A stretch of DNA of 64,000 nucleotides, taken from NCBI GenBank assembly GCA_963663965.2, contig CAXXFK010000028.1, forward strand, positions 192,001 through 256,000, written 5' to 3'. Shown piece after piece: positions 1-25,482 of this stretch (the first letter of the stretch is position 1; every line of letters starts with the position of its first letter). Source of the DNA: Sedimentisphaerales bacterium (GTDB taxonomy: Bacteria; Planctomycetota; Phycisphaerae; Sedimentisphaerales; SM23-30). The notes under the pieces are model-generated. The model did no database searches. It saw nothing but the letters and a program-made list of their open reading frames with translations, and was not told the origin of the DNA. The position numbers and the translations under genes are program-made.

Positions 1-1333
1 CAATCGTCGTGTGTGTTCTTGCCTTATAGGCTGTAATTGAACCTCGATCCTTCCAGAAAATATTAATGCCGTATTCAGCCAGCGTTGCAACCTCCAATTC
101 ATCCCAGTTTTCTGTTGTCAGAGAACCCTGGTCAGCGCCTCGAAGCGACTTTTTGTCTGCCAGATACGGGCCCCACATGGGCTGGGCCAATCCGAAGAGG
201 TTTGACTCAATGTCTATCTGTGTGTCCAGGTAACTGCGCACACCCAAAGCAGCCGCTGCGCTGACGACGGGAATACCGCTGCACGATAGTGCGCCGCCCC
301 AGACGCTGAGCCGTGCCCCCAACAGATCGGGAGTCGGGGGATTTTCCCGGCCCATGGCGATCAAATCTTTGGCATTCGCAGTACGAGGCGTGAACCAGAT
401 GGAAACTGCTTTGCCTGAATTTTCTGCTGCTTCCAACAGCCCGCTTACTTGCCCAAACGATCTCAGTGGAACTGGAAGCAGTATTGAAAACGACTGCAAT
501 TGACACTTTCTAATCGGATCCATAATGACTTCTGGCTGTTTGAGCGCTTCGGCCAGGGACATCGGCAGCCGAATGATGAGGGCTTTATTCAGGGTGTTTC
601 GCGCATTAGCGCATACGGTATGGACGGCCATTAAGGTTGACAGGCGCTCGGCGCCGATTTCTTGGCCAATCATGTTGGCATGGTTAAGAAACTCAGCGGT
701 CAGTTGACCATGTGTCTGACCGGCGGCAGCGATCAGATTTGCCGGATCGGCGCTGTCGCAATGGTCAATGATGGTCATAGCGGTTTTAAGCTGGCTCAGT
801 GTCAAAGTGTTCAGAAGGTAACTGTCAGGAATCAATAGACTGAGAACGTCATTGGTCTCTGCGGAGGTATCCAGTTGGGACAGGATCTGCGTGACGACTT
901 TGTTATCTTTCAGTGCGTTCTCAGGTGCATTTTGCCAGTTTTTCTCTGCCTTGGTCAGCTCACTGGTAACCTCTTTAATGGTTTCAATCGCCTTGACGGT
1001 TTGATCTGGACATAACGAATTCGGATTTCGCTTCTGGATTGAACCTGTCAGATCGCACTGCCCGGAGCTATCCAGGACTGGCGCCAATAAGGCTGGATTG
1101 CTGACCGCATCGCTGCCCTTCAGTCGAAGCGCTGAAATACCCGACTGTATGGCCGTTGGCGTCGATTTAATCATATCTGTTGTCAGAACTTCGGGAATAT
1201 CCGAACCGATATACAATGGATCCTTATCGCTGTTTTCCATATGAGGGATGATGAAAACAACGACAGGGGGCTCCAGGACTGGAGTGCTTTCGCGGATGTC
1301 ATTAATCATTTGGGTACGCGTTGAAATAAGCAT
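1..1333 (-). CDS. Putative divergent contractile sheath protein (T6SS TssB/TssC-like or phage tail sheath-like); partial, runs off the window
   Basis: Not in the ORF track. ATG at 1333 with AGGAGA RBS at 1341-1346; I read 444 codons without a stop to the window edge. The C-terminal part VVSAAAALGVRSYLD...GLAQPMWG...LRG...ELEVATLAEYGINIFWKDRGSITAYKART resembles the sheath motif PSGAVAG..AR.D..G.W.APAG...E...LN..GIN.....G..VWGART. Confidence 0.55.
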   Translation of the reverse strand, partial: MLISTRTQMINDIRESTPVLEPPVVVFIIPHMENSDKDPLYIGSDIPEVLTTDMIKSTPTAIQSGISALRLKGSDAVSNPALLAPVLDSSGQCDLTGSIQKRNPNSLCPDQTVKAIETIKEVTSELTKAEKNWQNAPENALKDNKVVTQILSQLDTSAETNDVLSLLIPDSYLLNTLTLSQLKTAMTIIDHCDSADPANLIAAAGQTHGQLTAEFLNHANMIGQEIGAERLSTLMAVHTVCANARNTLNKALIIRLPMSLAEALKQPEVIMDPIRKCQLQSFSILLPVPLRSFGQVSGLLEAAENSGKAVSIWFTPRTANAKDLIAMGRENPPTPDLLGARLSVWGGALSCSGIPVVSAAAALGVRSYLDTQIDIESNLFGLAQPMWGPYLADKKSLRGADQGSLTTENWDELEVATLAEYGINIFWKDRGSITAYKARTHTTI

Positions 1334-1361
1334 AATGGTATCTCCTATATTAAATAGTTGT

Positions 1362-1757
1362 TTATCGACCACAAATAACCTCTGCATGGCCGATTACCAG
1401 TTTAGCCGGTTTGGCCTGCTTTATAATACTCTTGCAGGATCTGACCGGGGCAATGTCATCACAAAGTTGTACGCTGTCATTCATTGTTGCCGGGATTTTA
1501 TCGCCGATTACTAATGGAGTGGGTCCATTTTGAATGAAGTGGGCCTCGCTGACAAACGGTCTGATGCACTTAGGGTCACGATGTTGATTCCCATCCTGGT
1601 GCTCGATGATTTGATCAGTAAAGACCGGATTAGCATTGCCGATTTTGAGCTTGCAGTCCTGGCCTTGAAGGTCTGCCTCAAAGGTCTGGCTTATCGCCGC
1701 GACTGTATTGCCGATGAGCTGATAATGAATATCACTTGTCTGGATTTTGTTTGCCAT
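1362..1757 (-). CDS. Degenerate PAAR-repeat spike-tip-like protein
   Basis: Likely start MANKIQ at 1757 (AGGA RBS). Three PAAR-like repeats (CKLKIGNANPV; GPTPLVIGDKIPATMNDSVQLC; SIIKQAKPAKLVIG), an N-terminal DIH motif and Cys/His residues; about 131 aa. Confidence 0.55.
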   Translation of the reverse strand: MANKIQTSDIHYQLIGNTVAAISQTFEADLQGQDCKLKIGNANPVFTDQIIEHQDGNQHRDPKCIRPFVSEAHFIQNGPTPLVIGDKIPATMNDSVQLCDDIAPVRSCKSIIKQAKPAKLVIGHAEVICGR

Positions 1758-1761
1758 AAGA

Positions 1762-3270
1762 TTATCCTTTACTATCATCAGAGTTTTGTTTTTCCGGTTT
1801 CAAACCATTTTCAAGCATAACCACATTTTTAAATACACCAAGGGTTTGGTTGTCCTCGCTGTTCAACTGTGATTCAATCGTTCTGGCAATTCCTAGCGCA
1901 ATTTTCATAGCATTTTTAGCATTTTCATTTTCCAGTTTATCCGAAGAAAAACGAGCGTATATCATGGCTTTGGTGGCTTGAACCTCGAAGTGCTGATGGG
2001 GATTTGCAGTTAAAGCTTCGGCAATTCGTACACGCATCAGGCACTGGTCGAGTCCGAGTACACCGGACTTAACGCCGTCATCCAGCGGAAAAAGCATATC
2101 CCGAGACGTGACCGTTTCAACGGCATACCTGTCATCCATCGGACTCGGCAATGTCGCCGCATACAGGAGACGCCGGGTTTTCATGCCAACCACCCTGAGA
2201 CGATATTGATCTGCTTTCAATTGAAGCTGAACGATTACCAGTTCTTTATCCTTATAACCGGCTGCCTGGACAATGGATGCCGCATTCGCGACCGTCATCC
2301 AGCTGGATACCTCCACATTGGGTATGTCAAATCCCAGGAGTTTGGAAAACAGGCCGCTTGCGATAATCGGAGCATCCTTGGAGCGAGGCAGTTGTGAAAC
2401 ATAACATGTAAGCCAGTGTCTCACATCGTCATTAGTGGCCATAATGGCGATGATAAAATCCTCCTGGTCAAGAATTTTGGCTAGCTTGTCGGCATCAATA
2501 GATTCAGTCCATTCCGCTATAGTGTGATTAGTCCGAGTAGATTGCATGGCCGGATATGTCAGCGATGTTGAATCAGGCATTTCAGCCGGATTATTTACCT
2601 CTTTTGTTGATTTTTGAAAGGCCCAGGCAATTCCGGTAATCGCAAGCATGACCACAAAAATCGCCATGGGAATTACAAACGACGGCTCACAGTGGAAAAT
2701 ACTATCTTTGACTGCTTTGTAACGACGGTAAAGGGCGCTGGGGGCAGGGCGATAAGGTGCCAGCATTTCTGCTAGGCCCGGATGCTGTTCCGGTAGATTC
2801 TCAAACGGCTTACGGTACTTGCGCCGGCCTTTAAAGATGATTTTTGCGATCGTGTTTCGAACTTGCTGGTTGCCCGTAGCGGCCAGATGTGCAAACACAA
2901 CTGCGGCGGGCAGGTTGGCTCTCCCATCTATGTTAACCGGGTGAGTTTCCGGATTCCACCCGAGAGCCATCAGCAATTCGCTATAGAAATGGAGATCTGA
3001 TATGAGCAGGGCCGGATCAAGTAGATATCGGGCAACCGTCTGGCGGAGTTCCTCTAGGCACAGATCGGGATCATGGATTCGATCCAGTACTGGCTGAAGA
3101 TCCTGTTTGTTATCGATACGGTTTAACGATTTGCTGATAAGGAAGTCAATTGCCTTTTTTATCACTGGATGGCAGTTATCGACGGCATCCAGGAGAAGGT
3201 GATATTCTTCAGTTTCGAGGTGATTAACTTCGCGAAGCCGGGCGACAAGTTGTGTCACTTTAGGATTCAT
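1762..3270 (-). CDS. Single-pass membrane protein with degenerate OmpA-like C-terminus (TssL/TagL-like architecture)
   Basis: Helical N-terminus with LHFYSELLMALGW (weakly DotU-like); TM helix FVIPMAIFVVMLAITGIAWAF; C-terminal MLFPLDDG...RIAEALTANPHQHFEVQAT resembles OmpA domains but lacks GHTD. Stop codon lies just before the next gene's start. Confidence 0.4.
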   Translation of the reverse strand: MNPKVTQLVARLREVNHLETEEYHLLLDAVDNCHPVIKKAIDFLISKSLNRIDNKQDLQPVLDRIHDPDLCLEELRQTVARYLLDPALLISDLHFYSELLMALGWNPETHPVNIDGRANLPAAVVFAHLAATGNQQVRNTIAKIIFKGRRKYRKPFENLPEQHPGLAEMLAPYRPAPSALYRRYKAVKDSIFHCEPSFVIPMAIFVVMLAITGIAWAFQKSTKEVNNPAEMPDSTSLTYPAMQSTRTNHTIAEWTESIDADKLAKILDQEDFIIAIMATNDDVRHWLTCYVSQLPRSKDAPIIASGLFSKLLGFDIPNVEVSSWMTVANAASIVQAAGYKDKELVIVQLQLKADQYRLRVVGMKTRRLLYAATLPSPMDDRYAVETVTSRDMLFPLDDGVKSGVLGLDQCLMRVRIAEALTANPHQHFEVQATKAMIYARFSSDKLENENAKNAMKIALGIARTIESQLNSEDNQTLGVFKNVVMLENGLKPEKQNSDDSKG

Positions 3271-3321
3271 ATTGTTTGATTCCTTTCTTTTTGTACGGGT
3301 TGTTTACTAAGGATCGTGTTC

Positions 3322-3495
3322 TCAAGCGGGAATTGCGTGGCTGGTATGATACAGCCTATCTCGTGTCATATTGGCACAGTTATCACAGTCGAACTTGCTC
3401 CTATGGATTTCTGTATTTTGGGGAGATTCCTTCGTAGCGTTGATCGTTTTAATTTGAGTGGTACCGTCTGGGGCAACAATGAATATTCGCTTCAT
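3322..3495 (-). CDS. Small protein (57 aa) with N-terminal FIVxPxGxTxI motif and CxxC
   Basis: ATG at 3495 with AGGAGA RBS; begins MKRIFIVAPDGTTQIK; first gene of the leftward operon. Confidence 0.6.
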   Translation of the reverse strand: MKRIFIVAPDGTTQIKTINATKESPQNTEIHRSKFDCDNCANMTRDRLYHTSHAIPA

Positions 3496-4096
3496 GATTA
3501 TTCTCCTATGAATAGTGGTTGTGTTAAAATTCTCATCGATCGTCGTGAATAAAATATACAACAAAGAGAACTTGTACTTCGTCAAGTCTGGATATTACAA
3601 TGAAAGCATCCAGTCGTTTTGTCGGTTTAATGAGGTTCATTATCTTCATCTCTTTAGTATCAAATATTTGTCACTAATAGGTCTTTGCCCATAAGGGGTA
3701 CTCCTGAAGAAAAATATCAAAAAAAATTGGAAAATTTTATTATGCTGAAGCGTAACTATGAAATGGATTGGATTTGTAGGACAAAATCAAACGTATGTAA
3801 GATGTTAATAACTAAAGAGATAGAGATGTATTTTTTGTTTGGGGCCAAATGGCAATAAAAAGTTCTTTTGGGTTGAATATTGTTGCTTTTACCATGACGA
3901 ACAATTATGATTTTGCTATCGAATTTGTCGATTTGTCGATCAAAAACTTAGCTTTTAATAACCGCCTTCTTAAAATGTCACTATTCGTATTGTGATATGA
4001 TACTTCCTTTTTTAAGCGTGTATTTTGGTCGGTTATTATACCACTTAATAAACAGGACATGTTATTGATATCACACATACTTAAGAGAGGTTTATT

Positions 4097-7000
4097 ATGA
4101 ATTGCCTGGTTTACTTGTTTTTAAGCGTGCTAATTGTATTGGGTCAAAATGTCTTTGCCCAAGACAAAAGTGGTTTTTCGGAGCACAACGAATCAGAACA
4201 GAAACTCCCTACGACGGAATCACTTGAAGCGACTAAAACTGTCAGGGAGAAAATCCAGGCCCATCTTCAAATGTATGAGTATGATAAGGCATTGCCCCTT
4301 TTAGAACAGCGGCTAGAAATTGTTAAAAAGTCGCACAATAATCAACCTCATAGAGAAGTAGCTGAAATTCTTGACAATATTGCTGATTGTAAATACCGAT
4401 ATTTTTGGCCTAATGAGGCGGTTGCGTATCAACAAAAAGCCCATCAAATGTGGTTAAAATTATTTCCAGAAGAAAACTGTGTCGACGTGGCGAGAAGCTA
4501 TACTCGAATGGCTATTTATCTTGCGGCCACAGGAGCCATTCCCGAAAGCCGTCAGCACCAACAGAAGGCAAATGATATTTGGGTGAAATATGCTACTGAC
4601 ACAAATCCCGATATGATTAGAAACAGTACACTAAAAGCCATATACTTCAATAGCGAAGGATATCCCGACAAGGCCATTCAACAAATCAACATGGCGCTTG
4701 ATTTATGGCAAAAGACTTATCCCAACAAGAAATACCCGGATATGACTAAATGTTATATCCAATTAGCTCAGAGCTATGAGGCCATGCAACACCCTGAGCA
4801 GGCCCAAACTCAATTTGATAATGCAATCAAATTGCTGTTGGAAATATTCTCTGATCGGGATTGTCCAGATATTGCATGGTGTAAATCGGAATTAGCGGGT
4901 TATCAGCAAAGATTGGGCCGTTACCAAGACGCCTTAACATCTCAAAATGAGGCTGTTGAAATTTGGCTGAAATTATATCCCGACTTGAGTCATCCGATGG
5001 TGGCCCATAACTTTACCTTACTTGCCAACTGTTATGCTCAAAATAATGAAAATTCTAATGCGATAAGGTATTACCAAAAAGCGATTGATGCTTACAATGT
5101 CTACCATCATAATCAGAACCATCCTGATATTGCCAGAAGTTATACAAATCTGGCTATGTATTATCAAAATACGGAAAACCCCGCCCAAGCAGAAGCTTAT
5201 CAAAAAAAAGCGGTTGAAATGTGGTTACACTTGGATCCTAAGATGTCTCATCCTGAAATCGCATGGAACATTACAGTATTGGCAAATTGCTATGTCGCCT
5301 TGAATAAAAGCCCGGAGGCGGTTTTGCATTTTGAAAAAGCCCTAACGGCGAATCTTAATATGTATAAGAATCAAGATCATCCTGAAATAGCAAATAGTTA
5401 TCTTAATCTTGGACGCTATCTTGGGATGACAGGCCATTGGAATGAAGCAATGCCGGTTATTAAGAAGGCTGTTGCAATGTGGGAGCAATTGTCTCCGAAC
5501 AAGTATTTTGCTGAGATAGCTATCAGTAAAACGGTTTTGGCTGGTTGTTTAACCATGGGGGGCAAGCATACCGAAGCTTTGCCGGTTATTGAAGAGGCCG
5601 TAAAAATATGGGACCAGTTCCTGCCCGGTCAGAATTATATAGAGATCATCAAAAGCAAAACTGTTCTGGCCGGCTGCCTGTTCGGGGTAGGACGCCATAA
5701 TGAAGCATTGCCGGAAATTAAGGATGCAGTGGCGATGTTAGACCAATTATTTCCGAACAAAGATCTTGCTGAAAAGGCTATGAGCAAGACGTTGTTTGCC
5801 GGTTGTCTAGCCGGGATTGGTGAGTATACTGAAGCGTTGTCAGTTATAGAAGATGCGGTTAAAATGTGGGATCGGCTCCTGCCCGGCCAGGATCATCTCG
5901 AGATCGCCAGAAGCAAAGCTGTCCAGGCAGGGGTACTTTCGTTCGCAGGCCGCTATGATGAAGCCTTGCCGATAATTGAGCAAGCCAATACAATGTGGGA
6001 AAAGCTTTTGTCCGACCAGATTCGCCCTGAAATCGCTATCAGTTATACTATTAAGGGTGAAAGCCTTTTGGGGTGTGGGAAGGCTCAAGATGCTCTCTTC
6101 TTTATTACAAAGGCGAAAGAGATATATGACCAAATATACCGCAATCAAGATCATCCGGAAGTAGCTAGATGTAATACTGTATTAGCAGGATGCCTGGCCG
6201 ACTTAAAAAGATTTCAAGAAGCGTTACCCATTGCCAGTAACAGTAATAAGATGTGGATAAAGTTATATCCTGGTGAAGATCGCCCAGAAGTTGCTTTCAG
6301 CCATTCCGTTCTAGCAAGATGTTTTGACTACACTGGAAATCCAGGTAAAGCATTGGAATATCAGAAAAAATCCCATGATATGCTACTTAGAATGTCGCAT
6401 GGAAAAGATAATCTTGGAGTGGCTATGAGCTACACGAGATTAGCCCTCATTTATCTGGATGCATTAAAAATGCCTCAGGAAGCCCTGAAATATCAGGAAG
6501 AAGCTTTGGCTATGCTTAAAAGTCTCTATCCTGATCAAAATCATCCAGAAATTGCCCGGTGCTATTTTATTAAAGGTGGATGTTATTTATCCACAGAACC
6601 TGATGAGGCAATCAGGTATTACGACAAAGCACTTAAGATACGCTTACGGCTTCTTCCTGTCGATCATCCTGATATAGCTTTAAATTATTCCAAGATCAGC
6701 CTTGCGTATATGATGAAGCACGAATACTCTATGGCATCGGTGAACCAGCAAAAAGCTTTGGATATATATTTGCAATTATATGAAAATCAATATAACCAGG
6801 ATGTCGTGGATAGTTATAATGGAGTAATTGTATGCTATATTATGGTAAAACGATATCAAGATGCGATTAGTCGATGTAATGATCTTTATAACTATTTGAA
6901 ACGATTTAAAGATGACGATGATCCTGAAATTATCAAAGTATATGAAAAGATAGCCTTGTGCTATTCTGCTCTTGATCAACATTCCGAGGCAAAAAAATAT

Positions 7001-9847
7001 TATGAAAAGCTAGATGGGATTCTTCATAACGATAGATCAGCAATAATTAAAAACTATCTTGATTTATCAAAATGCAATCTCTATCTATGCCATTTCGATG
7101 AAGCGTTGAAGTATTGTGATATGGCCCTCACCGAAGCATTGAATTATGGAAACAGCGAATTAATGGCTAGCAGTTATTTGGAAACCGCTATTGTCTATTT
7201 ACTGTCATCTTCGCCTCGGAAAGCGGTTGATTATGCGAGGAATGCTTTGGCTATTTATAGAGACATATCAGGTGAAAAGAGTCCGGATGTCGCACTGTGC
7301 TATGCTACATTATCGAGTTGTCTTCCTGCGGCAGGCAAACATGCAGAGGCGTATTCATACTGCATGAAATCATACGAATTATGGCAAGAGATTTTTCAAG
7401 ACACACATTCCATTAGCCCTGATCTTCAATATTTTTCATACAGAGATAGCTATGCTTCAATGAGCAAAATGAAAGGACTCTATTATTTAATGTATGAGAA
7501 ATATTCAGAGGCATCCGCTTGTCTGGAAGAATTTTTTGAATGGTATTCCGGGACGGATCAGATGGAGTTAATTGGTGGAGTTGTCGTGCAGGCCCTATGT
7601 TTTATTGCATTAGAAAAAGATGAAGAAGCACGTAAATTGCTTGATGATAGTCAGGAATTATTCAGACAATTTCGATTGGGTGATATCAGATCCTCATTCT
7701 ATCATATGTTACTGGCATCATGTTATATGTCTTTGGAGCAGCCAGAAGAAGCTCTTTCCTTGGTGGAGAAGGCGCTGGAAATCAGTCGGAGTCGATATCC
7801 TACTGAGGATAATTTGGAAATTGCGATGGAATATATTATGTTAGGCGCTATTTATGGTTCCTGTAGTCAGTATCCAGAGGCATATCTGCGATTTAATCAG
7901 GCTACCCAAATTTATAAAAAACATGATCACAATATTGGTATGGCTGCCGGGTATCGTGGCCAATACGCTTGCAGCTATCTATCATCAAATGATGCTACTG
8001 AAACCATTACACTATTAGAGAACGCATTGTCTTCCAGTTGGAAGCATATCGCTATTAATTTTCCATATTGCAATCAATCATTGAAAGAGCAACTCTTGTC
8101 CAGTGAATCGATGGATTTTCAGGGACAGCAGGATCTGATGTTCAACTTGATCTTAAAGAGAACGTCAAAAACAGACTCGTTGTCTCAAACAGCAAGAAAC
8201 ACAATTGGATATCAAACGCTTCTAGATATGAAACATGTTTTGCTGGAAGCCCAGGCAAAAGAGCAGCAAGTGATAAATGCCATTGCACGGTTGGACCCAG
8301 ACATTAAAGAGAAGTGCCAAAAATATATCGATCTCAGAAGGCAATATTCCCCTTTATGGATTCAATCTATAGATCCATCACAAAGTACGCAACCTGTCTC
8401 ACCTGAATGCCTTGAGAAATTGCATAATGAAATCGATTCTCTTGCCAGAGATATCCGCGATACAAATCCTCAATTTTTTCAAAATGCCGAGTTAGATAGA
8501 ATCTCCATTGCGGATATTCAAAAGTCCTTAAGGCCCGGACAAGTTCTGCTTGACTATGTAACATATCGACCATTAGATTTAGATAAAGTTGATTCAATTT
8601 CATTTAGCGACCAGCTACGCTATGCGGTTTTTATATTAAGTGGGGATACTGAAATAATTAACTTCATTGATCTGGAAAATTCTGAAAAGCTGGATTATTT
8701 TATTGAACAGTATCTCGACCTGTTAGAAAAACAAACCAAGCCAAGTATAAATGGCAGACACTTAAGCCAGGATGATGAACTGACGTTAGCCTCTATTTCG
8801 TCTCGAATCAAAAATATAATTTTACCAAAGGATGTTATCGCCTGTCTGGATCATGCTGACCGGTTGTATATTGTTCCAGCCGGCAATTTATTCCGTTTTC
8901 CATTTGAAGCGTTGCCGGGCCGGGAAATGAACGCCGGTCCGGATCTGAATTACCTGATAGATCAATATCAATTCGATATTATCTACTTAAACACTGCACG
9001 AGAATTAGTGAATCGAATTACCACAGACACAACCAGTGACTGGAATAGTGTTAAGCCTAAAAAGGCATGTAGCATTGTAAACCCGGACTTTAATGCAGAG
9101 TCGAGTTCTGTCAAAAGAAAATCCGAAAATAAAGACATGAAATTATTTCTTCCTGAGCCCGAGGTAGAGTTGATGGAGTACGGCGAAGGCATGATAGCTC
9201 GTGTGCCAAAAAAATGGGGCCAATTACCCCTTACTCAAAAATTAACAGATTCACTTAGCAGTCTTTTAAAACAAGGTTTCACGTTGGATCCAAATTGTTC
9301 TGGTGTTTTAGCGGTAGAAAAAGCATTTTATGATGGATCGCATTGTCAAATTATGAATATTGCCACCCATGGTTATTACTGTAACAATAAATGGATCAAT
9401 CCGTTGAATCGCTCAATGTTAATTATGGCGGGTGCTAATAATCGCGACCCCAATAATTACCCTGATGATAGCCTTCTAACTGCTTATGAAATAGTTGGCA
9501 CGGATTTGAGCGATGTCGATTTCGTGAATCTCATTGCTTGTCAAACTGGCCAAGGCCAGTTAGATAATTATCATGGTGTGATTGGTCTTCGGTCTGCTTT
9601 TATGATGGCCGGCGCTCGCTCAATGAGCGCCAGTTTATGGAGCGTTGATGAAGCATCGACTGTCGTTCAGATGACTGATTTTTATAATTGTTGGCTAGGT
9701 AACGACCATATCGATTCTTATAACCGATATCGAGCATTCAGGGCGGCCCAGCTGGAAGCCAGAAAAAGGAATCCTCACCCTTGGTATTGGGCCGGTTTCG
9801 TGTATATTGGCGATCCCGGCGACTGGCCAGGTCGCCAAACACAATAA
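4097..9847 (+). CDS. Exported TPR-repeat CHAT (caspase-like) protease
   Basis: Signal peptide MNCLVYLFLSVLIVLGQNVFA; many ~43-aa HPEIA-type TPR repeats; CHAT motifs IVPAGNLFRFPFEAL, ATHG (H1758), ACQTG (C1815), SLWSV and HPWYWAGF; GAGG RBS. Confidence 0.93.
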   Translation: MNCLVYLFLSVLIVLGQNVFAQDKSGFSEHNESEQKLPTTESLEATKTVREKIQAHLQMYEYDKALPLLEQRLEIVKKSHNNQPHREVAEILDNIADCKYRYFWPNEAVAYQQKAHQMWLKLFPEENCVDVARSYTRMAIYLAATGAIPESRQHQQKANDIWVKYATDTNPDMIRNSTLKAIYFNSEGYPDKAIQQINMALDLWQKTYPNKKYPDMTKCYIQLAQSYEAMQHPEQAQTQFDNAIKLLLEIFSDRDCPDIAWCKSELAGYQQRLGRYQDALTSQNEAVEIWLKLYPDLSHPMVAHNFTLLANCYAQNNENSNAIRYYQKAIDAYNVYHHNQNHPDIARSYTNLAMYYQNTENPAQAEAYQKKAVEMWLHLDPKMSHPEIAWNITVLANCYVALNKSPEAVLHFEKALTANLNMYKNQDHPEIANSYLNLGRYLGMTGHWNEAMPVIKKAVAMWEQLSPNKYFAEIAISKTVLAGCLTMGGKHTEALPVIEEAVKIWDQFLPGQNYIEIIKSKTVLAGCLFGVGRHNEALPEIKDAVAMLDQLFPNKDLAEKAMSKTLFAGCLAGIGEYTEALSVIEDAVKMWDRLLPGQDHLEIARSKAVQAGVLSFAGRYDEALPIIEQANTMWEKLLSDQIRPEIAISYTIKGESLLGCGKAQDALFFITKAKEIYDQIYRNQDHPEVARCNTVLAGCLADLKRFQEALPIASNSNKMWIKLYPGEDRPEVAFSHSVLARCFDYTGNPGKALEYQKKSHDMLLRMSHGKDNLGVAMSYTRLALIYLDALKMPQEALKYQEEALAMLKSLYPDQNHPEIARCYFIKGGCYLSTEPDEAIRYYDKALKIRLRLLPVDHPDIALNYSKISLAYMMKHEYSMASVNQQKALDIYLQLYENQYNQDVVDSYNGVIVCYIMVKRYQDAISRCNDLYNYLKRFKDDDDPEIIKVYEKIALCYSALDQHSEAKKYYEKLDGILHNDRSAIIKNYLDLSKCNLYLCHFDEALKYCDMALTEALNYGNSELMASSYLETAIVYLLSSSPRKAVDYARNALAIYRDISGEKSPDVALCYATLSSCLPAAGKHAEAYSYCMKSYELWQEIFQDTHSISPDLQYFSYRDSYASMSKMKGLYYLMYEKYSEASACLEEFFEWYSGTDQMELIGGVVVQALCFIALEKDEEARKLLDDSQELFRQFRLGDIRSSFYHMLLASCYMSLEQPEEALSLVEKALEISRSRYPTEDNLEIAMEYIMLGAIYGSCSQYPEAYLRFNQATQIYKKHDHNIGMAAGYRGQYACSYLSSNDATETITLLENALSSSWKHIAINFPYCNQSLKEQLLSSESMDFQGQQDLMFNLILKRTSKTDSLSQTARNTIGYQTLLDMKHVLLEAQAKEQQVINAIARLDPDIKEKCQKYIDLRRQYSPLWIQSIDPSQSTQPVSPECLEKLHNEIDSLARDIRDTNPQFFQNAELDRISIADIQKSLRPGQVLLDYVTYRPLDLDKVDSISFSDQLRYAVFILSGDTEIINFIDLENSEKLDYFIEQYLDLLEKQTKPSINGRHLSQDDELTLASISSRIKNIILPKDVIACLDHADRLYIVPAGNLFRFPFEALPGREMNAGPDLNYLIDQYQFDIIYLNTARELVNRITTDTTSDWNSVKPKKACSIVNPDFNAESSSVKRKSENKDMKLFLPEPEVELMEYGEGMIARVPKKWGQLPLTQKLTDSLSSLLKQGFTLDPNCSGVLAVEKAFYDGSHCQIMNIATHGYYCNNKWINPLNRSMLIMAGANNRDPNNYPDDSLLTAYEIVGTDLSDVDFVNLIACQTGQGQLDNYHGVIGLRSAFMMAGARSMSASLWSVDEASTVVQMTDFYNCWLGNDHIDSYNRYRAFRAAQLEARKRNPHPWYWAGFVYIGDPGDWPGRQTQ

Positions 9848-10113
9848 TTATTACTGTTCTTAGAATTGTAAGTTGGTTTTATTTGGCCATATTACAATTA
9901 TAGCTTGAGTTTACATAAGGGCCTATAAAAAAAGGTGTTATGTATTATTGTCTGTTTGGCCAATAATGCCTTTTCGGCATTTTTCCCGATTATGTATATT
10001 CGAGTAATTCATTTAAGGGCGGAAAAAACATAAAAAAAGGTGAAATTTCCATAAATGATTCCTCCATATAAGTGAAAGTAAACATTACATCACTTATTAT
10101 GGAGATTTCAATT

Positions 10114-10452
10114 ATGAGAACTTTTATTGTGGATCCAAATGGCAAAACCTGGATTGAAAATTCAGCGCTTTCTCTATCGAATCAATGTCCCTCAAATCAA
10201 AATGCTGTTACTGGAAAGAGTTGTTCTAACCATCGGAATGTGAGGGAGTCCAAAGAACACGATGGGGGATATGGGATTATTAAAGCAGTCGTTTTTTTGA
10301 TTGTATTAGCGATTTATTTAGGGATTACATTTGCAGTATTAAACTGGTTACCCTGCGGCCATTACCCGGTGTTGTTAGTTAGTCTGCCTGGATTATTAAT
10401 CACCTGGCCTTTATGGAGCATCGTGTCGGACGAATTCGGGTGGTCTGATTAA
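10114..10452 (+). CDS. Small 2-TM membrane protein with N-terminal FIVxPxGxTxI motif
   Basis: GGAG RBS at 10101 and ATG at 10114 (MRTFIVDPNGKTWIE); two C-terminal hydrophobic helices; paralogue of the next gene. Confidence 0.7.
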   Translation: MRTFIVDPNGKTWIENSALSLSNQCPSNQNAVTGKSCSNHRNVRESKEHDGGYGIIKAVVFLIVLAIYLGITFAVLNWLPCGHYPVLLVSLPGLLITWPLWSIVSDEFGWSD

Positions 10453-10612
10453 TAGCCAATCGTAATATTCTTATAAATTGAATACGGATGAATCAACATT
10501 TTCATGATCATTATTTCTAGCAAATATTCGATACCTTAAACCCATGTCAGGCATTTCAATTGACCTGGGAATAAGTCAGTAAAGTGCTATCATTTTCATA
10601 AGGAATCAGCTC

Positions 10613-11026
10613 ATGAGCATATTTATAGTGGATCCCGAAGGGAACACAAGGATTGAGACAAATCCTTGGCAAGCGACTCGCAGCCGACCTGTTGAACATA
10701 ACCATATCAAGATCAAACCGAATGGAATCGAGACTAATGATAAATTCGATGACGTATTATTTAAAATATTCGAACCGTTTATTGAGGTCATCGTCTTTCT
10801 TGATAATATCTTTAAAGCTATCCGTCGTAACGGAATAATTAATTGTAAGTCTAAGATCGTTGTTAAAATTAGCAATTTTCTTCTTGGCTTTGCGATCTAT
10901 TTTGGAATTGTCTTTTTTGTCGCCAACAGTCTGCCGGAGGATCGATATCCGACATTTGTAGCAGTATTATTTACACTGCCAATCTGGTTTATTATTGTCG
11001 TTGTTCTGGGATTACTTGAAAAATAA
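10613..11026 (+). CDS. Small 2-TM membrane protein with N-terminal FIVxPxGxTxI motif
   Basis: AGGA RBS; begins MSIFIVDPEGNTRIE; FAIYFGIVFFVANSLPEDRYP aligns with LAIYLGITFAVLNWLPCGHYP of the preceding gene. Confidence 0.7.
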   Translation: MSIFIVDPEGNTRIETNPWQATRSRPVEHNHIKIKPNGIETNDKFDDVLFKIFEPFIEVIVFLDNIFKAIRRNGIINCKSKIVVKISNFLLGFAIYFGIVFFVANSLPEDRYPTFVAVLFTLPIWFIIVVVLGLLEK

Positions 11027-11187
11027 GCGCATTAGTATTCGATTAATATTCGGGATAAACATGGCGATATACTTTACATTCCAGCCAGAAATTTGGGTTT
11101 GTGTATCATATGGTTTCTTGATATAATAGGTATAAGTGTAAAGGTTAATCAATGTTATTATGCAATTATATTGGAATTTAATCGATC

Positions 11188-12603
11188 ATGTCTAAATCTT
11201 CTATGTGTTGGAAAAAGGAATATGATAATGCCTGTGGGAAATGGCCTTATTACAGGGAATCAATTAAAGAAAAAGAATATGAATCACAGCTAAAATATTG
11301 CAGCTCAAACATAAAGCCCGGGGGCGATTCAGAAAATCAAGAAAAGGAGTATTTAACCATCAGGGATTTTAACGGAATATCGCTAGCACTAGCGGTTGGA
11401 TGTCGTGTTGAACAAGCCGTAAATGAGATATTAGAATATGAATCTAACGAGTATATAGAAAATAAAGCCAGACGAAATATAGACTCTTATGCCGCAAAAG
11501 ATCTTTGGAGAGACATGGTGGCAGCGGTCTTATTAGATATAACCTATAGACTTAGAGTTCCAACTGAACACAATGATGACAGTCAGGAGCAGATAGAGAA
11601 AAAAAGGGTCGCCGATAAAGCATTGAGAACTTTCCTGGATAAGCATAATTGCAGGAGTACAGGCAATATGCCTGCTGGTTTGCCGCGCAAAGTAGTATTT
11701 GACTTCTTAGAACAATTCCCTGTGATTGAGATTCATTCTTTGAATTATGGCAATCAAACTATCATAAACAAAATAAAATTGCAGAAAAATTTGCCTGCAA
11801 AAATCATTTATTACAAAGGAAGAACCAAGCTGCGAAAATATATTATAACGACTTGGTGCAAAGCCAATATCTGTCAACAAAGCAAAAAGACAAATACACC
11901 GGAGCATGGAGTTAATTCCGCGAACGATCCCAGATCTCAATGTATGGTTGATAGCGACTTTACCTCGACAATTCAACAGGTTGTTAAGGAATGCCTAGAG
12001 GAACAAATCGACAATACGAAAAGAAAAATTCTTATCGGTTTGTATTGTAACAATAAAAAACAAAAAGATATTGCCCGCGAACTCACTCTAACTGAAGTAC
12101 AAGTTCACAGATGGAAGAATGATGCAATTAAGCAAATCTCGGCAATATTCAAATCCCGCCGTTGTGACGATTTTGATGAAACGGATTTTGCCAAAATTCT
12201 TTCCGAATTTCTTGGGATAACTTTCGATATAGATATGGTGAAAAAGATGTTTGAACATTCCAGTCCTGAAGATAGACGTATTGAGAAAAAAAATGGCGCA
12301 TATTGCGAAATTGAAAATGAAGTGCGATCTAAGCTAGAGTGCCATATCACAGTTGAAGGCCAGTTTGCCCTTACATTGGTCTGCAGTGGAATAAGCTTGA
12401 AAAAAGTTGCTCAAATTCTGGGTTATAGCCATTTTACCACAGAAAAAATTATGCGCGATGCCAGGATTGCTATAAGGAATGTTTATGATGAATTCATGGC
12501 CTCACCGAATAATCTTGATGTTGACCGATACATTCAAATAGTGTGCGACTTTTTCGATGGCATTGACAATAATGCGATTAGGGACATTGTCAGGAACAAC
12601 TAA
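11188..12603 (+). CDS. Sigma-70/ECF-like factor (TIGR03001-like) with two region-4 HTH domains
   Basis: PAKIIYYKGRTKLRKYI resembles the PKI..YSGRG.L..W motif; HTH1 KRKILIGLYCNNKKQKDIARELTLTEVQVHRWKNDAIKQI; HTH2 FALTLVCSGISLKKVAQILGYSHFTTEKIMRDARIAI. Confidence 0.7.
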   Translation: MSKSSMCWKKEYDNACGKWPYYRESIKEKEYESQLKYCSSNIKPGGDSENQEKEYLTIRDFNGISLALAVGCRVEQAVNEILEYESNEYIENKARRNIDSYAAKDLWRDMVAAVLLDITYRLRVPTEHNDDSQEQIEKKRVADKALRTFLDKHNCRSTGNMPAGLPRKVVFDFLEQFPVIEIHSLNYGNQTIINKIKLQKNLPAKIIYYKGRTKLRKYIITTWCKANICQQSKKTNTPEHGVNSANDPRSQCMVDSDFTSTIQQVVKECLEEQIDNTKRKILIGLYCNNKKQKDIARELTLTEVQVHRWKNDAIKQISAIFKSRRCDDFDETDFAKILSEFLGITFDIDMVKKMFEHSSPEDRRIEKKNGAYCEIENEVRSKLECHITVEGQFALTLVCSGISLKKVAQILGYSHFTTEKIMRDARIAIRNVYDEFMASPNNLDVDRYIQIVCDFFDGIDNNAIRDIVRNN

Positions 12604-12620
12604 ATTCAATTGGACATTTT

Positions 12621-14381
12621 ATGAAAGATAATAGTGACTTAACGAGCAGTCTGAGCAATATAAATGACGGTTTGCCTGCTGACATAGATGAGGATATTGA
12701 AAGTTTAATTGTGCTATCCGAAGGAAGGAGAACGGAATTGACTGTAAGTGAAAGTGTGAAATTGATGGGTAATATTGCTCATAATTCAGTATACCGAAAA
12801 ATCTTTATGGAATTATGCGTCATAGATGATCTGGAAAAAGGTTCCCGGAGTACTGATAAACATAAATACAGATCAAGAAAGTGGATATTCAATCGTAGCA
12901 CATTTGTGCTTGCCGCCTGTTTAGTCGTTGGACTTGGAATTTATATATTTAACCAATGGAGTATTAAATATGACAATTCCGACATTGATTTCGATTTGTA
13001 TGCACAATATATCGACAATCATCACAAGAAAGGCAGCCTGCAATGCTTACGAAATGTTGAGCCAGTCATGCCCGCTACTTGGCAACAACCTGCGGCTCGG
13101 GTTATTATGGGGCAAGAGCCACCTTATAATAATATGAAATTATCGACAGTAATCGTAAAGAGTAAAAGCAGTCACGGTAGCGGAGTGTTTATTTCCAATA
13201 TGCTAAATGCGAAGCTTATACTGACGAATTATCATGTCATAGAAGATGAAGTGCAAAATGCTGCATTGAGCGGCGAAAAACCATGGTTAGAAATAATTAC
13301 TTGTGAATATATTCAAGATGAAGAGATGTTGGTCAGGCGAAAGTCGAAAGGGGCAACAGGTAATCTTAACGCGGAAGTTATTAAGATCGACCCTCTTAAA
13401 GATATTGCGTTGCTGAAACTTGCAGATGAGGTTGACTATAATATTGTGTGTATGCCTTTATTACCGACGGAATTTATACCGGATCGGCAAAAATGCTTTG
13501 CCATTGGCTCACCAGGAGGTAAATGGGCTTGGACCGGGAAAGAAGGTGTTGTCTTAAGACAAGTTCATTTCCCGGATGATTTAACCAAGTATATTGTTTC
13601 TGATAATAAGCTGCTGGAAGACACATCTGGTCTTTGGTTGAATACAAAACTGGAAGAACCTCTTGAACCGGGTGACTCTGGCGGCCCGCTATTCAATGAA
13701 AATGGTCAAATAATTGGATTAAATGTTGCTACTTTTCCCGATAACAATGCAAGTTTGCATATTTCCGTTAAAGAACTGAAAGCATTTATGGACGCTTATT
13801 ATAATAATCCGGAAATGTCTCCAATCCCCGTTGATATCTGGAAGGCGGGAAATTGTGGTGGCCGATTACTCTATCCACAATTAGTAGATATTCCTGTAAA
13901 GAAAAATATTGTAATCAGGGGACTTAGTTGTATCTATGATGCCGCGCCTCCCGATATAATAAATATAGAACCAATAGCGACTTGCCTTTATTTAAATTTT
14001 GTGGAATTAAATTCATCTGATATTAACTTGACGGATCTACCTTTCTCAACCAAGCGGCCTTATGGTCTTTGGGGAAGAAATCAGGGAGAATTTCGTTTCA
14101 ATATTGTTATGATATCAAGAAATGATGGAATTTCCATCGTCGGTTATACAGATAGCAGATTAAGACTTAACCATATTCGTGTTGACCATGACAACGATAA
14201 TCGGGCTGATGTAATATGGGAATGCAATCATGATGGGAATTGGTCATTATTAAATCTTAAAAGAGAGCGTCCTCTCATTGAAATGAGTAATAAACAACAG
14301 CAACAGTATGCCAGAAAGATATTTAAAAATCTCACTCAAAATATGCATACATACGGCGCCAATCATAATCTGGTTAAATAA
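12621..14381 (+). CDS. Anti-sigma-like N-terminus + TM + trypsin-like (S1) serine protease
   Basis: Catalytic triad motifs LTNYHV (H205), DIALLKL (D261) and PGDSGGPL (S353); TM segment FVLAACLVVGLGIYIF; short N-terminal cytoplasmic domain; directly follows the sigma gene. Confidence 0.8.
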   Translation: MKDNSDLTSSLSNINDGLPADIDEDIESLIVLSEGRRTELTVSESVKLMGNIAHNSVYRKIFMELCVIDDLEKGSRSTDKHKYRSRKWIFNRSTFVLAACLVVGLGIYIFNQWSIKYDNSDIDFDLYAQYIDNHHKKGSLQCLRNVEPVMPATWQQPAARVIMGQEPPYNNMKLSTVIVKSKSSHGSGVFISNMLNAKLILTNYHVIEDEVQNAALSGEKPWLEIITCEYIQDEEMLVRRKSKGATGNLNAEVIKIDPLKDIALLKLADEVDYNIVCMPLLPTEFIPDRQKCFAIGSPGGKWAWTGKEGVVLRQVHFPDDLTKYIVSDNKLLEDTSGLWLNTKLEEPLEPGDSGGPLFNENGQIIGLNVATFPDNNASLHISVKELKAFMDAYYNNPEMSPIPVDIWKAGNCGGRLLYPQLVDIPVKKNIVIRGLSCIYDAAPPDIINIEPIATCLYLNFVELNSSDINLTDLPFSTKRPYGLWGRNQGEFRFNIVMISRNDGISIVGYTDSRLRLNHIRVDHDNDNRADVIWECNHDGNWSLLNLKRERPLIEMSNKQQQQYARKIFKNLTQNMHTYGANHNLVK

Positions 14382-14637
14382 ATGAATGTTCTATAACACT
14401 GGAAGAATGATAATGAGGGGCCCAAGACTGAAAACTGAAATACTTCTCCGGGTGGACTTTCGCGCTTTTGAAGAGCTTAGTCTAAATATTAAATTGTGAA
14501 AAAAATATCGGCAATCCGATTGGTTTTGTACAAACTTACCCGCATGCGGATATATACAATCAATATTATTCAATATGGACAGAACTTCTTTAACACTATT
14601 TTTGAATATTTACCAAGCTGGAAGGGGAATCACCCGG

Positions 14638-15055
14638 ATGGTCATTGGCTGGATATAATGCACAAGGCGACGTACAATCACGGGAATTATTCCCTTCGCA
14701 GATCCGCCCTACGAAAGATCTCACGACTTTTACTATCGCTTTTTCCCGGATGGAAACTGGTCGTTGAGTCATTTGTGTCAAAAGCTTGCTCTGATTATGG
14801 TACAAAAAAATTTACAGGGTGTGATGGATGAAAAACAGGTATTTACCTGTGTTTCTCTCGGGTATAAGGGTAAGAGCAAAACTGGTCGAGTGTTATATGC
14901 AAAGTTCCAGAAAGCAAAGAAAAAGATGACTTTATCTTTACCACAAATATTGCTATGCCGGCCGAAGCGGTTCTGTCTTGCAATGCCGACCACTGGGCAA
15001 TCATCGAATACCGTGTTAAGCATTGGGACGAAATTCAAGTCAGAGAAGAAAATTG
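14638..15055 (+). pseudogene. Degraded IS701/IS4-like transposase remnant
   Basis: Reads MVIGWI*CTRRRTITGIIPFADPPYERSHDFYYRFFPDGNW with an in-frame TAA at 14656-14658, then frameshifted ESKEKDDFIFTTNIAMPAEAVL...HWAI; large internal deletion; IS66 copy 1 sits at its 3' end. Confidence 0.6.
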
Positions 15056-16520
15056 GTAACCGTTCACACATTCTGACAGATTAACGATGGATATTTTATG
15101 TTGCTCCAATGAGCAATAATCGATTCATGGATAAAATCAAGGACATTCTGACGCTGTTTTTTGCAGGTTGCTATTGTTGTCCAGATGCGTTCGCACCAGC
15201 GCATGCCTGCCTGGCCGCGCGTTCCTTGCGTGATCCGTCGGTCAATCACCACGGTGCGAATTTGGCGCTCCGTGCCATTATTGGTGGGTTCGACAGCCGG
15301 CTCCGTCAAAAATCGGAAGTAATCGGTTGCAGCATTGCCCTTAAATCGTTTGGCCAGTTTCTGGGCCAGTTTGTGATTCGGCGGCCTTCGCATTTGCTTC
15401 AAAAAGCCGGTTTTGAGGCGCGCCATCGAACGCAACCAGCCCGGTGGCGTCAAGGCGTCCCGCCGATGCAGGGTGTCAAACAGTTTTTTGAGCCATGCCA
15501 GCAATTTTGTTCCCCAGCGAGACAGTGCGGGCACGCTATGCTCGGCCAGAAAACGAACGTCTCGAATCAAGTGAGCCATGCAATACTGAACACGAACACC
15601 AAACAACCTGGCATACTTGCGATAGGCGCCCCAGTAATCGGCCCCAATGATCCCGGCAAAGGTTTTACCAAGCATGGTTTCCAGCACGCCGCTGCCGCGC
15701 GACGGATCAATCTTAAACAAACTGTAGGCGCCGGTATCAAAACACCAGGTCCAGTGCAGCTTGCCATTGTCATGATGGCCTGTCTCATCGATATTGACCT
15801 GCGGTTCGTTCGGCAATCGGTCGGCCAGTTCATCATACGATCGGCCCAAGGCGCTCGATCCCTTCTGAACCGCCTTGCCAAGCATGCCGCGAGAAACCTC
15901 CAGCTTCATCACCTGCTGGAAAAAACCCTGAATGGTGCTATACGACATATGGCAGGCGCCTTTCAAATAGGACACCAACGCCGTCAGGTCCGCACCCAGC
16001 AATCCCCCTTTACGAATCTCGTTCGGCAAGGGGGTGATCTGGACCTTTCCTGTCACAGGGTTTCGGTACTTTCTGGCTCGATGCTCAATCACCTGGTACA
16101 TTTTCTCCGGCAATCCGATTTGTTGAATGACAAACCAGGCATCCAGAGGCTTAAGGCCCACGGCGTCTTTGTCTGCCAACTCGTATTCAAATGTGTGGTC
16201 AACTTCTTCAAACGGTTGACGCGAAAACTTTTTATGCCCATGCTGGCCACCCCGGTTGCGTTTTTTGCGACTAGCCTTAGCGGAAGGCCTCTTGGGTTTG
16301 ACAATATCACTTGAGGGCGGCTTGGACGAATTGCTCGAATCTTTCTTGAGCCGAGCAATTTCTTCTTTGAGCTGCCTTACTTCTTCGCGTAAGGAAGCGA
16401 CCTCTTGGAGCAGCTGCGCTATAACAATATCTTTGTCATCCATAACTTTTGGTATAACAGATGGTTGTGCAGGGCGCAATCTTTTTTCTTGTTATTTTTA
16501 AAAAAAGTGTGAATTGTTAC
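15056..16520 (-). mobile_element. IS66-family element (single-ORF, ISBst12-like), copy 1, 1465 bp
   Basis: Terminal IRs GTAACCGTTCACAC and GTGTGAATTGTTAC (12/14 match); flanking 8-mers GAAAATTG and AAAAATTG (7/8 match). Confidence 0.9.
15064..16443 (-). CDS. IS66-family transposase
   Basis: Coiled coil followed by SSNSSKPPSSD; DETG, ADYWGAY, QYCMAHLIR and PTNNGTERQIR motifs; start MDDKD shared with copy 2. Confidence 0.92.
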   Translation of the reverse strand: MDDKDIVIAQLLQEVASLREEVRQLKEEIARLKKDSSNSSKPPSSDIVKPKRPSAKASRKKRNRGGQHGHKKFSRQPFEEVDHTFEYELADKDAVGLKPLDAWFVIQQIGLPEKMYQVIEHRARKYRNPVTGKVQITPLPNEIRKGGLLGADLTALVSYLKGACHMSYSTIQGFFQQVMKLEVSRGMLGKAVQKGSSALGRSYDELADRLPNEPQVNIDETGHHDNGKLHWTWCFDTGAYSLFKIDPSRGSGVLETMLGKTFAGIIGADYWGAYRKYARLFGVRVQYCMAHLIRDVRFLAEHSVPALSRWGTKLLAWLKKLFDTLHRRDALTPPGWLRSMARLKTGFLKQMRRPPNHKLAQKLAKRFKGNAATDYFRFLTEPAVEPTNNGTERQIRTVVIDRRITQGTRGQAGMRWCERIWTTIATCKKQRQNVLDFIHESIIAHWSNIKYPSLICQNV

Positions 16521-16620: not shown

Positions 16621-17406
16621 ATGGAACTGGATACGTTAATTGATACAGATCAACTCACGTCGCGAGAGGCTGGCTGGGTAAATAAGTTTATCAGGCAGCT
16701 CAAAGACAGGCAGGTAGTTCTGCTGTCACATTGTGATATCAGCGTTATAACTGAATTCGAAAATCGAGGCATGCCGATAAAAGATGCCTCCGATATTATC
16801 CATAACAGGTACAATTGCCGTGGTCATTTCGTTAGCCGCATAAATGGTCAGCCGCCGATGATCATACTGGTAAAAGAATATGCTAATAAACGAAATGATG
16901 GCTATACTCTCATTCATGAAGGCAGCCATCTCAGGATCCGCGAAATATACGACAGAATTCTACAGCGGGATAAAAATGAGATGCATACAGCTGCCGGTAA
17001 TCATATTGACAGGCTCTTTTTTGCTGACGAAAAGAATAGCGATGTCTGGGCTATCCTTGAAGAACTTATCATATACAGGCATGACAAACGATTCTCTGAT
17101 CATAGTAATATGGAACTTCTGGCAAGGGTTTTGCAAGCCTACTATATTGAACCAGACTCCAGAATGAACTTATACAGAATTATTTACCTTACCTTCGAGC
17201 CATTTACTACAACAGACAGTACATTCAGCTTTAAAACTTTTTTAAATCTGATGGTCAGGCTTCGCTATTCCAAAGTTAACAGGCTTGAAACCGCTACTCA
17301 TGCCCGGTTCAAGTTTTTTTATGATTACCTGCAGAAGATGCTGAAAGACCTGGACGTGCCAGAAGAAGAAAGACTAATTTTTGACTGGTATACCAATATT
17401 CCTTAA
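16621..17406 (+). CDS. Hypothetical protein with HExxH zincin-like motif
   Basis: TLIHEGSHL (H99-E100-H103) and a downstream ILEE; 261 aa; no signal peptide. Confidence 0.55.
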   Translation: MELDTLIDTDQLTSREAGWVNKFIRQLKDRQVVLLSHCDISVITEFENRGMPIKDASDIIHNRYNCRGHFVSRINGQPPMIILVKEYANKRNDGYTLIHEGSHLRIREIYDRILQRDKNEMHTAAGNHIDRLFFADEKNSDVWAILEELIIYRHDKRFSDHSNMELLARVLQAYYIEPDSRMNLYRIIYLTFEPFTTTDSTFSFKTFLNLMVRLRYSKVNRLETATHARFKFFYDYLQKMLKDLDVPEEERLIFDWYTNIP

Positions 17407-21078: not shown

Positions 21079-21124
21079 TTCCATTTATTATTTGTCTCTG
21101 ATAGTGGATGATCGCATAGGAAAT

Positions 21125-22607: not shown

Positions 22608-22650
22608 TTGTAATCTATCCTTATGGTAAGAGTGTCTTTTATGCCTATGA

Positions 22651-22670
22651 TGCTGCAAAAACTGCTGCAA
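22651..22670. repeat. Tandem TGCTGCAA repeats, putative integrase arm-type sites
   Basis: TGCTGCAA at 22651 and 22663 (12-bp period), between the integrase start and the att core. Confidence 0.45.
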
Positions 22671-22726
22671 GTCAATATGAAAATATGTAACTACTTGTCA
22701 ATAAAAGCATGAAAAGAATAAGCCAT

Positions 22727-22773: not shown

Positions 22774-22779
22774 TTTTTT

Positions 22780-25470: not shown

Positions 25471-25482
25471 GTTTTGAATCTG

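Follow-up and report, generated by a model that had tools for sequence, protein, structure and literature searches.

The DNA analysed here (the window) is a stretch of 64,000 nt of contig CAXXFK010000028.1 (positions 192,001-256,000) of a Sedimentisphaerales bacterium (GCA_963663965.2; genome G000, completeness 94.6%), and our subject is a group of five genes at 4097-14381 that may encode a signalling switch acting across the cell envelope. All five lie on the plus strand and encode a protein with TPR repeats and a CHAT protease domain (TPR-CHAT), two small proteins with transmembrane (TM) helices, a sigma factor and a membrane protein bearing a trypsin domain (Table 1). An earlier note, made from the sequence, had described these open reading frames (ORFs) as co-oriented and divergent from a leftward operon, and their coordinates were confirmed. 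Below, genomes are designated G, fetched loci L and protein homologues P; G013 is a genome of the same family as that of the window.

The five genes and their products

The genes are loosely spaced, with gaps of 266 nt between the CHAT gene and the first small gene, 160 nt between the small genes and 161 nt between the second of them and the sigma gene; the 17-nt gap between the sigma gene and its trypsin-bearing partner is the sole tight coupling among the five. Their GC content is 0.37-0.41 each, as compared with 0.46-0.51 in the leftward operon and 0.486 in the genome, and this genome contains no full-length paralogue of any of the three large genes. One public contig, which is probably from the source sample, covers 2049-15081, and for this reason the adjacency of the two gene halves is unlikely to be an assembly error. 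Promoter scans did not rise above chance level, no terminators were found, and the search for a shared upstream motif yielded only short AT-rich words.

Table 1. Features of the cluster and of the adjacent operon, in window positions
Feature	Position	Strand	Remarks
563-aa sheath-like protein, first part	1..1387	-	operon goes on left of the window
138-aa protein, no family match	1362..1778	-	tip-protein-like by position and eye only
502-aa single-TM protein, no family match	1762..3270	-	neighbouring operon
57-aa ORF heading the leftward operon	3322..3495	-	same N-terminal leader as the two small 2-TM proteins
Intergenic divergent region, 601 nt	3496..4096		no promoter signal above chance
TPR-CHAT protease, 1916 aa	4097..9847	+	CHAT domain at 8807-9814; dyad H1758 (9368), C1815 (9539); hydrophobic leader, residues 3-21
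Small 2-TM protein	10114..10452	+	likely start 10114, longest ORF from 10072; shared N-terminal leader
Small 2-TM protein, paralogue of the 10114-10452 product	10613..11026	+	same N-terminal leader
Diverged ECF-type sigma factor, TIGR03001-like clade, 471 aa	11188..12603	+	~85-residue insertion in region 2; region 4 at residues 260-318; ~125-residue C-terminal extension
Probable anti-sigma	12621..14381	+	N-terminal cytoplasmic domain, TM 89-107 (12885-12941), linker, trypsin H205/D261/S353, conserved C-terminal domain
Codons for M163-G164, family T[LM]G linker-motif position, candidate cut site	13107..13112	+	motif alignment

The first product carries 15 TPR_12 stretches in the Pfam scan and a CHAT domain (PF12770) at residues 1571-1906, with an E-value of 2.2e-41 and 142.6 bits against a cut-off of 24; its histidine and cysteine are placed within the CHAT dyad motifs, so that the earlier claim of an intact protease dyad held. 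As to export, also claimed there, the hydrophobic leader is present and was taken as a signal peptide on hydropathy and by eye; such a stretch recurs in 16 of the 26 rows of the window-type CHAT subfamily, and the protein is likely to be exported to the periplasm. The nearest CHAT homologue, P0066, has the source label Phycisphaerae, and a window-type CHAT was found in one of 400 genomes of the order. A sequence search of the PDB with the CHAT region returned nothing relevant.

The fourth gene, which the earlier note had called simply a sigma factor, encodes a very diverged one that was recognised through its homologues. The general profile of extracytoplasmic function (ECF) sigma factors, TIGR02937, matches it over region 4 only (E 1.7e-8, 34.2 bits against a curated cut-off of 42.9), and region 2 was recognised via homologues in the alignment; the sigmas of the related loci L090, L199 and L200 exceed this cut-off. 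TIGR03001 (cut-off 154.6 bits) gave no match with the window sigma and 26.6-63.5 bits with its relatives, being the best or second-best match, far below the cut-off, for the sigmas of G013, L199 and L200; by these scores the clade is related to the TIGR03001 Myxococcales family 1 and is not a member of it. The Atlas search gave sigma-like leads at 0.94-0.95. Among 1.84 billion representatives HMMER found a single homologue, P0060 (29% identity over residues 12-347, E 1.4e-21), which shares the insertion inside region 2 in the alignment and lacks the C-terminal extension (residues 345-471), while a word search returned the window sigma itself as the only match. Stepwise profile searches from the sigma reached G013 and then L199 and L200. 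A clade profile built from 40 clade sigmas (defined in the next section), with the window, P0060, G013 and L090 left out, scored G013 at 77 bits, P0060 at 36, L090 at 26 and the window sigma at 20 (residues 209-319), and because of the last value the 11188 protein is, as far as profile similarity goes, a remote member of this clade. The AlphaFold2 model of the window sigma, made from two alignment rows, has a pLDDT of 41. A second sigma-4-like helix-turn-helix (HTH), hinted at residues 400-427 with an E-value of ~0.1 only, was not accepted.

In the product of the last gene the trypsin domain was found with an E-value of 7.4e-15, and the TM helix and the intact triad reported by the earlier note are both in place. 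Since the N-terminal part is predicted to be cytoplasmic and is followed by a single TM helix, the trypsin domain would face outward. No PDZ domain was matched in this product, and residues 1-88 contain neither a zf-HC2 match nor a CHCC zinc motif. Seventeen relatives match the partner beyond the trypsin domain; of the 18 family rows that include the window, 12 have an N-terminal domain and a TM helix, two are cut short, and four have only a leader, without an anti-sigma domain (ASD). The sources of these relatives are Phycisphaeraceae, Nitrospira and Eisenbacteria, and the best of them, P0003, is 38% identical over 95% of the partner. A clade ASD profile scored 8 of 13 trypsin-type N-termini above the best of 200 shuffles, and an ASD was scored for the G013 partner too; P0003, to whose N-terminus that of the window partner is 32% identical over 103 residues, reaches 8.8 bits. 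Through its orthologues, then, the 12621 product is a probable anti-sigma. As to the trypsin family itself, a scan of 400 phylum genomes gave one match, a caspase-trypsin fusion in G098 without a sigma on its contig, a search of 40 relatives gave generic HtrA matches only, and in the collection scans with the trypsin alignment, whose patterns are generic for trypsin, L090 was the one true family member among the 160 matches listed. The G098 fusion (L172, 5767-9219, minus strand) is one 1150-aa protein comprising a leader, a C14 caspase, DUF4384 and a trypsin of the same family, with repeated RG motifs.

Since the window sigma folds poorly, the G013 sigma and the first 100 residues of its partner were modelled as a proxy for the window pair. 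The predicted complex scored 0.82 against 0.14 for the best of three controls, passing a mark that 116 of 157 solved complexes and 2 of 215 mismatched pairs attain; at least 70% of the contacts are common to the runs, the partner has a pLDDT of at least 67, and the contacts involve sigma residues 126-146 and 192-228, i.e., stretches of regions 2 and 4. The pass may reflect likeness of the model to solved ECF-ASD complexes. The co-folding proposed in the earlier note is thus obtained for a relative's pair, as a proxy for the window's own copies.

Recurrence of the association and known systems

A five-row sigma profile found matches in 32 of 401 phylum genomes at E ≤1e-9, and flanks of up to 10 kb per side were taken for 35 strong matches and for 20 weaker ones intended as controls. 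Three of the latter were reassigned to the clade by sigma score and coverage alone, which, together with the query loci L199 and L200, gave 40 clade loci and 17 controls. A CHAT gene lies within ~10 kb at 31 of the 40 clade loci and at none of the 17 other sigma loci; the proportion is 30/38 without the query loci, 26/28 for loci whose flanks reach 6 kb or more on each side and 18/22 when counted by genomes, as compared with 0/10 for controls with full flanks. The 36 CHAT ORFs at clade loci are located mostly downstream on the same strand (19) or upstream and divergent (11), five sharing the arrangement of the window (upstream, same strand) and one being downstream on the opposite strand; His and Cys are kept in all 34 sigma-adjacent CHATs that were aligned. 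The gene after the clade sigma encodes an ASD-TM protein with a DUF928-like ectodomain at 32 of the 40 loci and an ASD-kinase at four, and was not found at the remaining four; none of the 40 has a trypsin in this position. The window therefore differs from the usual clade locus by trypsin in place of the DUF928-like ectodomain and by a CHAT from another subfamily, while the order at L200 (CHAT, sigma, zf-HC2-TM) is that of the window. At L212, L215, L228 and L229 an ASD-Ser/Thr kinase fusion takes the place of the ASD-TM-DUF928 protein after the sigma, and at two of these loci CHAT genes come immediately next.

The combination with trypsin was met again at L090, where an ECF sigma above the cut-off precedes a trypsin-type partner gene by 76 nt. 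The best homologues of the window sigma and partner, P0060 and P0003, have the same longest contig (10051 nt) and probably form a second sigma/trypsin-partner pair. On these grounds the sigma/anti-sigma/CHAT module is real and recurrent, and, of what the earlier note had proposed, a CRISPR-independent module of a sigma, a membrane anti-sigma and a likely exported TPR-CHAT is supported by the recurring association. The module is common in part of the Planctomycetota, and one assay would annotate many loci.

As to known systems, the earlier note had taken Csx29-Csx30-CASP-sigma as its model. The idea of a TPR-CHAT acting on an anti-sigma without CRISPR stands, but the nearest design is DdvS/DdvA of Myxococcus xanthus, of which the locus is most plausibly a split variant bearing trypsin. 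According to the DdvS/DdvA paper (PMC11506125), the anti-sigma there carries a TPR-CHAT in the periplasm, and site-1 self-cleavage is a proposal; the likeness extends to the His-Cys dyad, to the proposed linker cut at site 1 followed by RseP and, with a very diverged sigma and a probable ASD on the side of the window, to the ECF sigma and the single-pass class I ASD anti-sigma. In the window the leader-bearing CHAT gene is separate and the anti-sigma carries trypsin; DdvA unites the anti-sigma and the TPR-CHAT in one polypeptide, which would cut in trans between the members of a dimer, and it has a CHCC zinc site, which the window anti-sigma lacks. No CBASS or CRISPR regulon was seen here. Fused forms of the DdvA type are given there for Myxococcota and one Comamonas only. 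Csx29 is likewise a separate TPR-CHAT that cuts an anti-sigma, at residues 427-429 beside a Met, but, as described in the available portion of PMC10028731, that system is cytoplasmic and triggered by Cas7-11 with target RNA, and Csx30 is soluble, unlike the membrane partner encoded in the window. Scans of 25 window proteins with Pfam and of nine with PADLOC detected no cas genes.

Two further groups resemble the locus in part. ECF54 of Actinobacteria is a CRISPR-independent ECF sigma with TPR-CHAT (0.71 copies per ECF) and subtilase (0.68) genes nearby and, in the part of the supplement to PMC7826278 that could be used, without a putative anti-sigma, whereas in the window the gene after the sigma encodes a membrane partner, and the serine protease, a trypsin, is part of this same protein; the Pfam scan of the window proteins found no subtilase in the cluster. 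The EACC2-caspase systems bring together a caspase-type protease, an ECF sigma, a TPR protein and variable domains including trypsin, with autopeptidase activation proposed, but, as far as the accessible text of PMC8195603 goes, they are built on EACC2 and a C14 caspase and not on an exported TPR-CHAT with an ASD-TM-trypsin protein. The literature searched, with subscription papers mostly outside the search, contained no description of a split sigma/ASD-TM-trypsin/exported TPR-CHAT unit. The classical case of regulated intramembrane proteolysis with an HtrA-family protease is RpoE-RseA-DegS-RseP, in which the PDZ protease DegS is a protein of its own; in the window, the HtrA-like domain belongs to the anti-sigma and CHAT is the candidate site-1 enzyme.

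Candidate release mechanism and its alternatives

We consider it somewhat better than even (a probability of roughly 0.58) that the likely exported TPR-CHAT is the site-1 protease of a trans-envelope switch that releases the 11188 sigma from the 12621 anti-sigma. According to this scheme, the 12621 protein would hold the sigma inactive at the inner membrane, with its N-terminus situated between sigma regions 2 and 4, as predicted for the G013 pair and supposed for that of the window. Binding of a periplasmic signal by the TPR array would align the His-Cys dyad, by analogy with DdvA and Csx29; CHAT would then cut the linker after Met or Leu, here at M163-G164, as the co-variation of motifs suggests, and the trypsin domain would be shed and may serve as an amplifier or effector. 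An RseP-type protease could finish the membrane stub and free the sigma, and M50 protease matches above the cut-off are present in the genome.

The candidate bond comes from a motif common to the two proteins. In the loop before the catalytic His, T[LM]G occurs in 15 of the 26 window-type CHATs (shuffle mean 0.55, maximum 3) and [LM]G in 20 of them (shuffle maximum 13), as opposed to T[LM]G in none of the 34 CHATs beside DUF928-type anti-sigmas. In the linker that leads into the trypsin domain, 13 of the 18 family rows have T[LM]G and 16 have [LM]G. The linkers of the DUF928-type partners contain R[GS] instead (28 of 32), and in the G098 caspase-trypsin fusion RG is present in the caspase loop as well as before the trypsin. 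Both cut specificities exist in the caspase-like family: the bond cut by craspases follows M or L, and that cut by separase follows R (PMC11506125). These alignments suggest that T[LM]G in the CHAT loop and the trypsin linker is a matched cut site, and the match names one specific bond for an assay.

The same motif could be read in the opposite direction, the serine protease of the anti-sigma sensing the signal, cutting its own linker after Leu/Met and cutting the CHAT loop to activate CHAT, which would then be a downstream effector and not the site-1 enzyme. HtrA-type proteases favour aliphatic residues at P1, which the presence of T[LM]G in both proteins fits; moreover, the triad is invariant in all 18 family rows, including the four that have a leader and no anti-sigma domain. 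Yet in front of the same-family trypsin of G098 stands RG, as in the loop of the caspase with which it forms one protein, and an Arg motif is retained at a similar place in the 32 DUF928-type partners, which have no trypsin; because of these two facts the motif appears to follow the caspase-type partner and not the trypsin, and we regard activation from the trypsin side as rather unlikely.

A number of observations weigh against CHAT as the site-1 protease of the switch. The N-terminus of the window partner itself obtained no score on the clade ASD profile, and in a profile comparison its probability was 5.6%. The window's own CHAT loop lacks [LM]G, and in the CHAT loops of the DUF928 side R[GS] occurs in 14 of 34, which is not above chance (shuffle mean 9.7, maximum 18). 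The clade loci are kin, many of them from one family, so that the association counts are not independent. Among the matches listed, L090 is the sole true trypsin-type locus with neighbours besides the window, and its leader-bearing TPR gene, 8.8 kb further, is truncated by the end of the locus, the CHAT domain being cut off; in favour of the association, the best 12 matches of this gene in a comparison with 60 CHAT proteins are without exception of the window type, TPR repeats being weak markers. A quick tree of 63 CHAT domains places the window CHAT with three tandem genes of G013 (support 99), inside the set from its own search and outside the group of 34 sigma-adjacent CHATs (SH-aLRT 100). 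The 24.6-kb contig of the three G013 genes, which begins inside the first of them, contains no clade sigma, and the only clade sigma of G013 is on another contig, adjoining a C14 caspase and an exported subtilase; this arrangement speaks against a fixed CHAT/sigma/anti-sigma trio. Finally, two genes and long gaps separate CHAT from the sigma in the window.

From the same facts one may suppose that the functional unit consists of the sigma and the trypsin anti-sigma alone; CHAT, located in a low-GC island, would then be an exported protease that was acquired independently, or belong to the regulon, and would have no part in sigma release. Besides the distinct subfamily of the window CHAT, the unlinked genes of G013 and the spacing in the window, this is favoured by the IS66 copies, integrase and primase genes that come after the cluster and by the lack of a sigma at all four CHAT regions of G098. 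It has to contend, however, with the clade-wide CHAT association, with the motif common to the window-type CHAT subfamily and the trypsin family, and with the similar GC content of the five genes, well apart from that of the genome; we therefore judge it improbable to about the same degree as activation by the trypsin. Least probable is a decaying or remodelled module, in which the 471-aa protein would no longer be a working sigma and the proteases would act on other envelope substrates, as might be thought from its sub-cut-off score, the mere 20 bits with the leave-out profile, the large insertion in region 2 and the unscored ASD, but all ORFs are open, both catalytic sets are intact, P0060 keeps the insertion, and the identities of P0060 (29%) and P0003 (38%) extend over the lengths given above.

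If CHAT is the site-1 enzyme, the locus is of some general use. To date, the release of a sigma across a membrane by CHAT has been put forward as a hypothesis for a single fused protein, DdvA, and a natural split form would provide a separable enzyme and substrate. Should the trypsin domain be shed in an active state, the anti-sigma would double as a protease zymogen, and no such case was found in the literature searched, within the scope given above.

Leftward operon, small genes and flanking island

The leftward operon begins with the 57-aa ORF at 3495 and continues with nine more genes, the last of them, a DnaK paralogue, lying beyond the window; it extends ~6.3 kb beyond the left end of the window (L001 9698-19270 corresponds to window positions -6302 to 3270), where five further ORFs, one of them TssK-like, and the DnaK paralogue are found. 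The earlier note had called it injection-like. The operon does exist, while its identity as an injection system comes from weak matches: TssK with an E-value of 1.6e-5 and 24.2 bits against a cut-off of 100, and the sheath-like protein with an Atlas score of 0.96 and a recognition of 1915, below 2300. Tube, spike and tip labels were assigned by eye and gene order, and the AlphaFold2 model of the 392-aa VgrG-like protein has a pLDDT of 34. No match to TssF, TssL/DotU or VgrG (GPD) was obtained at E ≤1 in G000, though diverged forms could escape such a search. Homologues of the sheath-like protein were absent from 300 class genomes, from five family genomes and from viral contigs; the TssK-like and 502-aa TM proteins were not found in G013, nor the VgrG-like protein in plasmids, and PDB sequence searches with the sheath-like, VgrG-like and tube-like proteins gave nothing relevant. 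Possibly, the operon encodes a very diverged contractile system.

Of the five genes, the two small ones share a feature with this operon. Their products, which had been noted earlier as membrane proteins, have two predicted TM helices each and are 27% identical to each other, and together with the 57-aa ORF they share the N-terminal leader pattern FIVxPxGxTxI, which is found on both sides of the divergent region and is the sole sequence link between the leftward operon and the rightward genes. In 14.5 million translated residues the pattern has four matches, of which three are these ORFs and the fourth is off a start position; the leader is absent from the other fetched loci. At L090, small ORFs with an N-terminal leader in common (2808-3065, minus strand, and 7565-8206, plus strand) flank the sigma/anti-sigma pair, one of them with a pretoxin HINT domain; they parallel the three leader-sharing ORFs of the window, with no sequence likeness seen between the two sets.

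Control of the contractile-like operon by the sigma, as the earlier note had envisaged, was not borne out: 11 leftward or small proteins have no match in the 254 fetched loci, the GC contents differ, and the leader of the small genes is the one feature in common. We hold it unlikely that the 11188 sigma controls the leftward operon. Slightly more doubtful still is a joint reading of all these features as a modular switch family with a matched cut-site code (Arg-Gly for the DUF928 type, Leu/Met-Gly for the trypsin type), in which one cut would free the sigma and shed a live serine protease into the periplasm, the sigma would activate a highly diverged contractile injection system via the divergent promoter, and the three leader-sharing small genes would mark the regulon.

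In G013, two paralogous ExbB/ExbD/TonB-like cassettes with exported coiled-coil proteins are present (L182, 8425-19730, and L178, 15251-19988). One is located upstream of the clade sigma, divergent from CsgG-DUF4384-subtilase and caspase-FGE gene, and the other after the three tandem TPR-CHATs, near DnaK pieces; the subtilase and the caspase have a short KAIG motif in common, as seen by eye.

To the right of the cluster, two near-identical IS66 transposase genes (15064-16479 and 18205-19584) flank a 261-aa ORF of no family (16621-17406), and the contig depth of this region, 18-20 against 2-3.6 for the gene cluster, indicates many copies. Further on, at 19810-27100, an AEP-TOTE primase, an HTH_17 gene, an integrase, a second AEP-TOTE primase-helicase and an AbiEii/DUF6088 pair make up a mobile or defence island adjoining the cluster.

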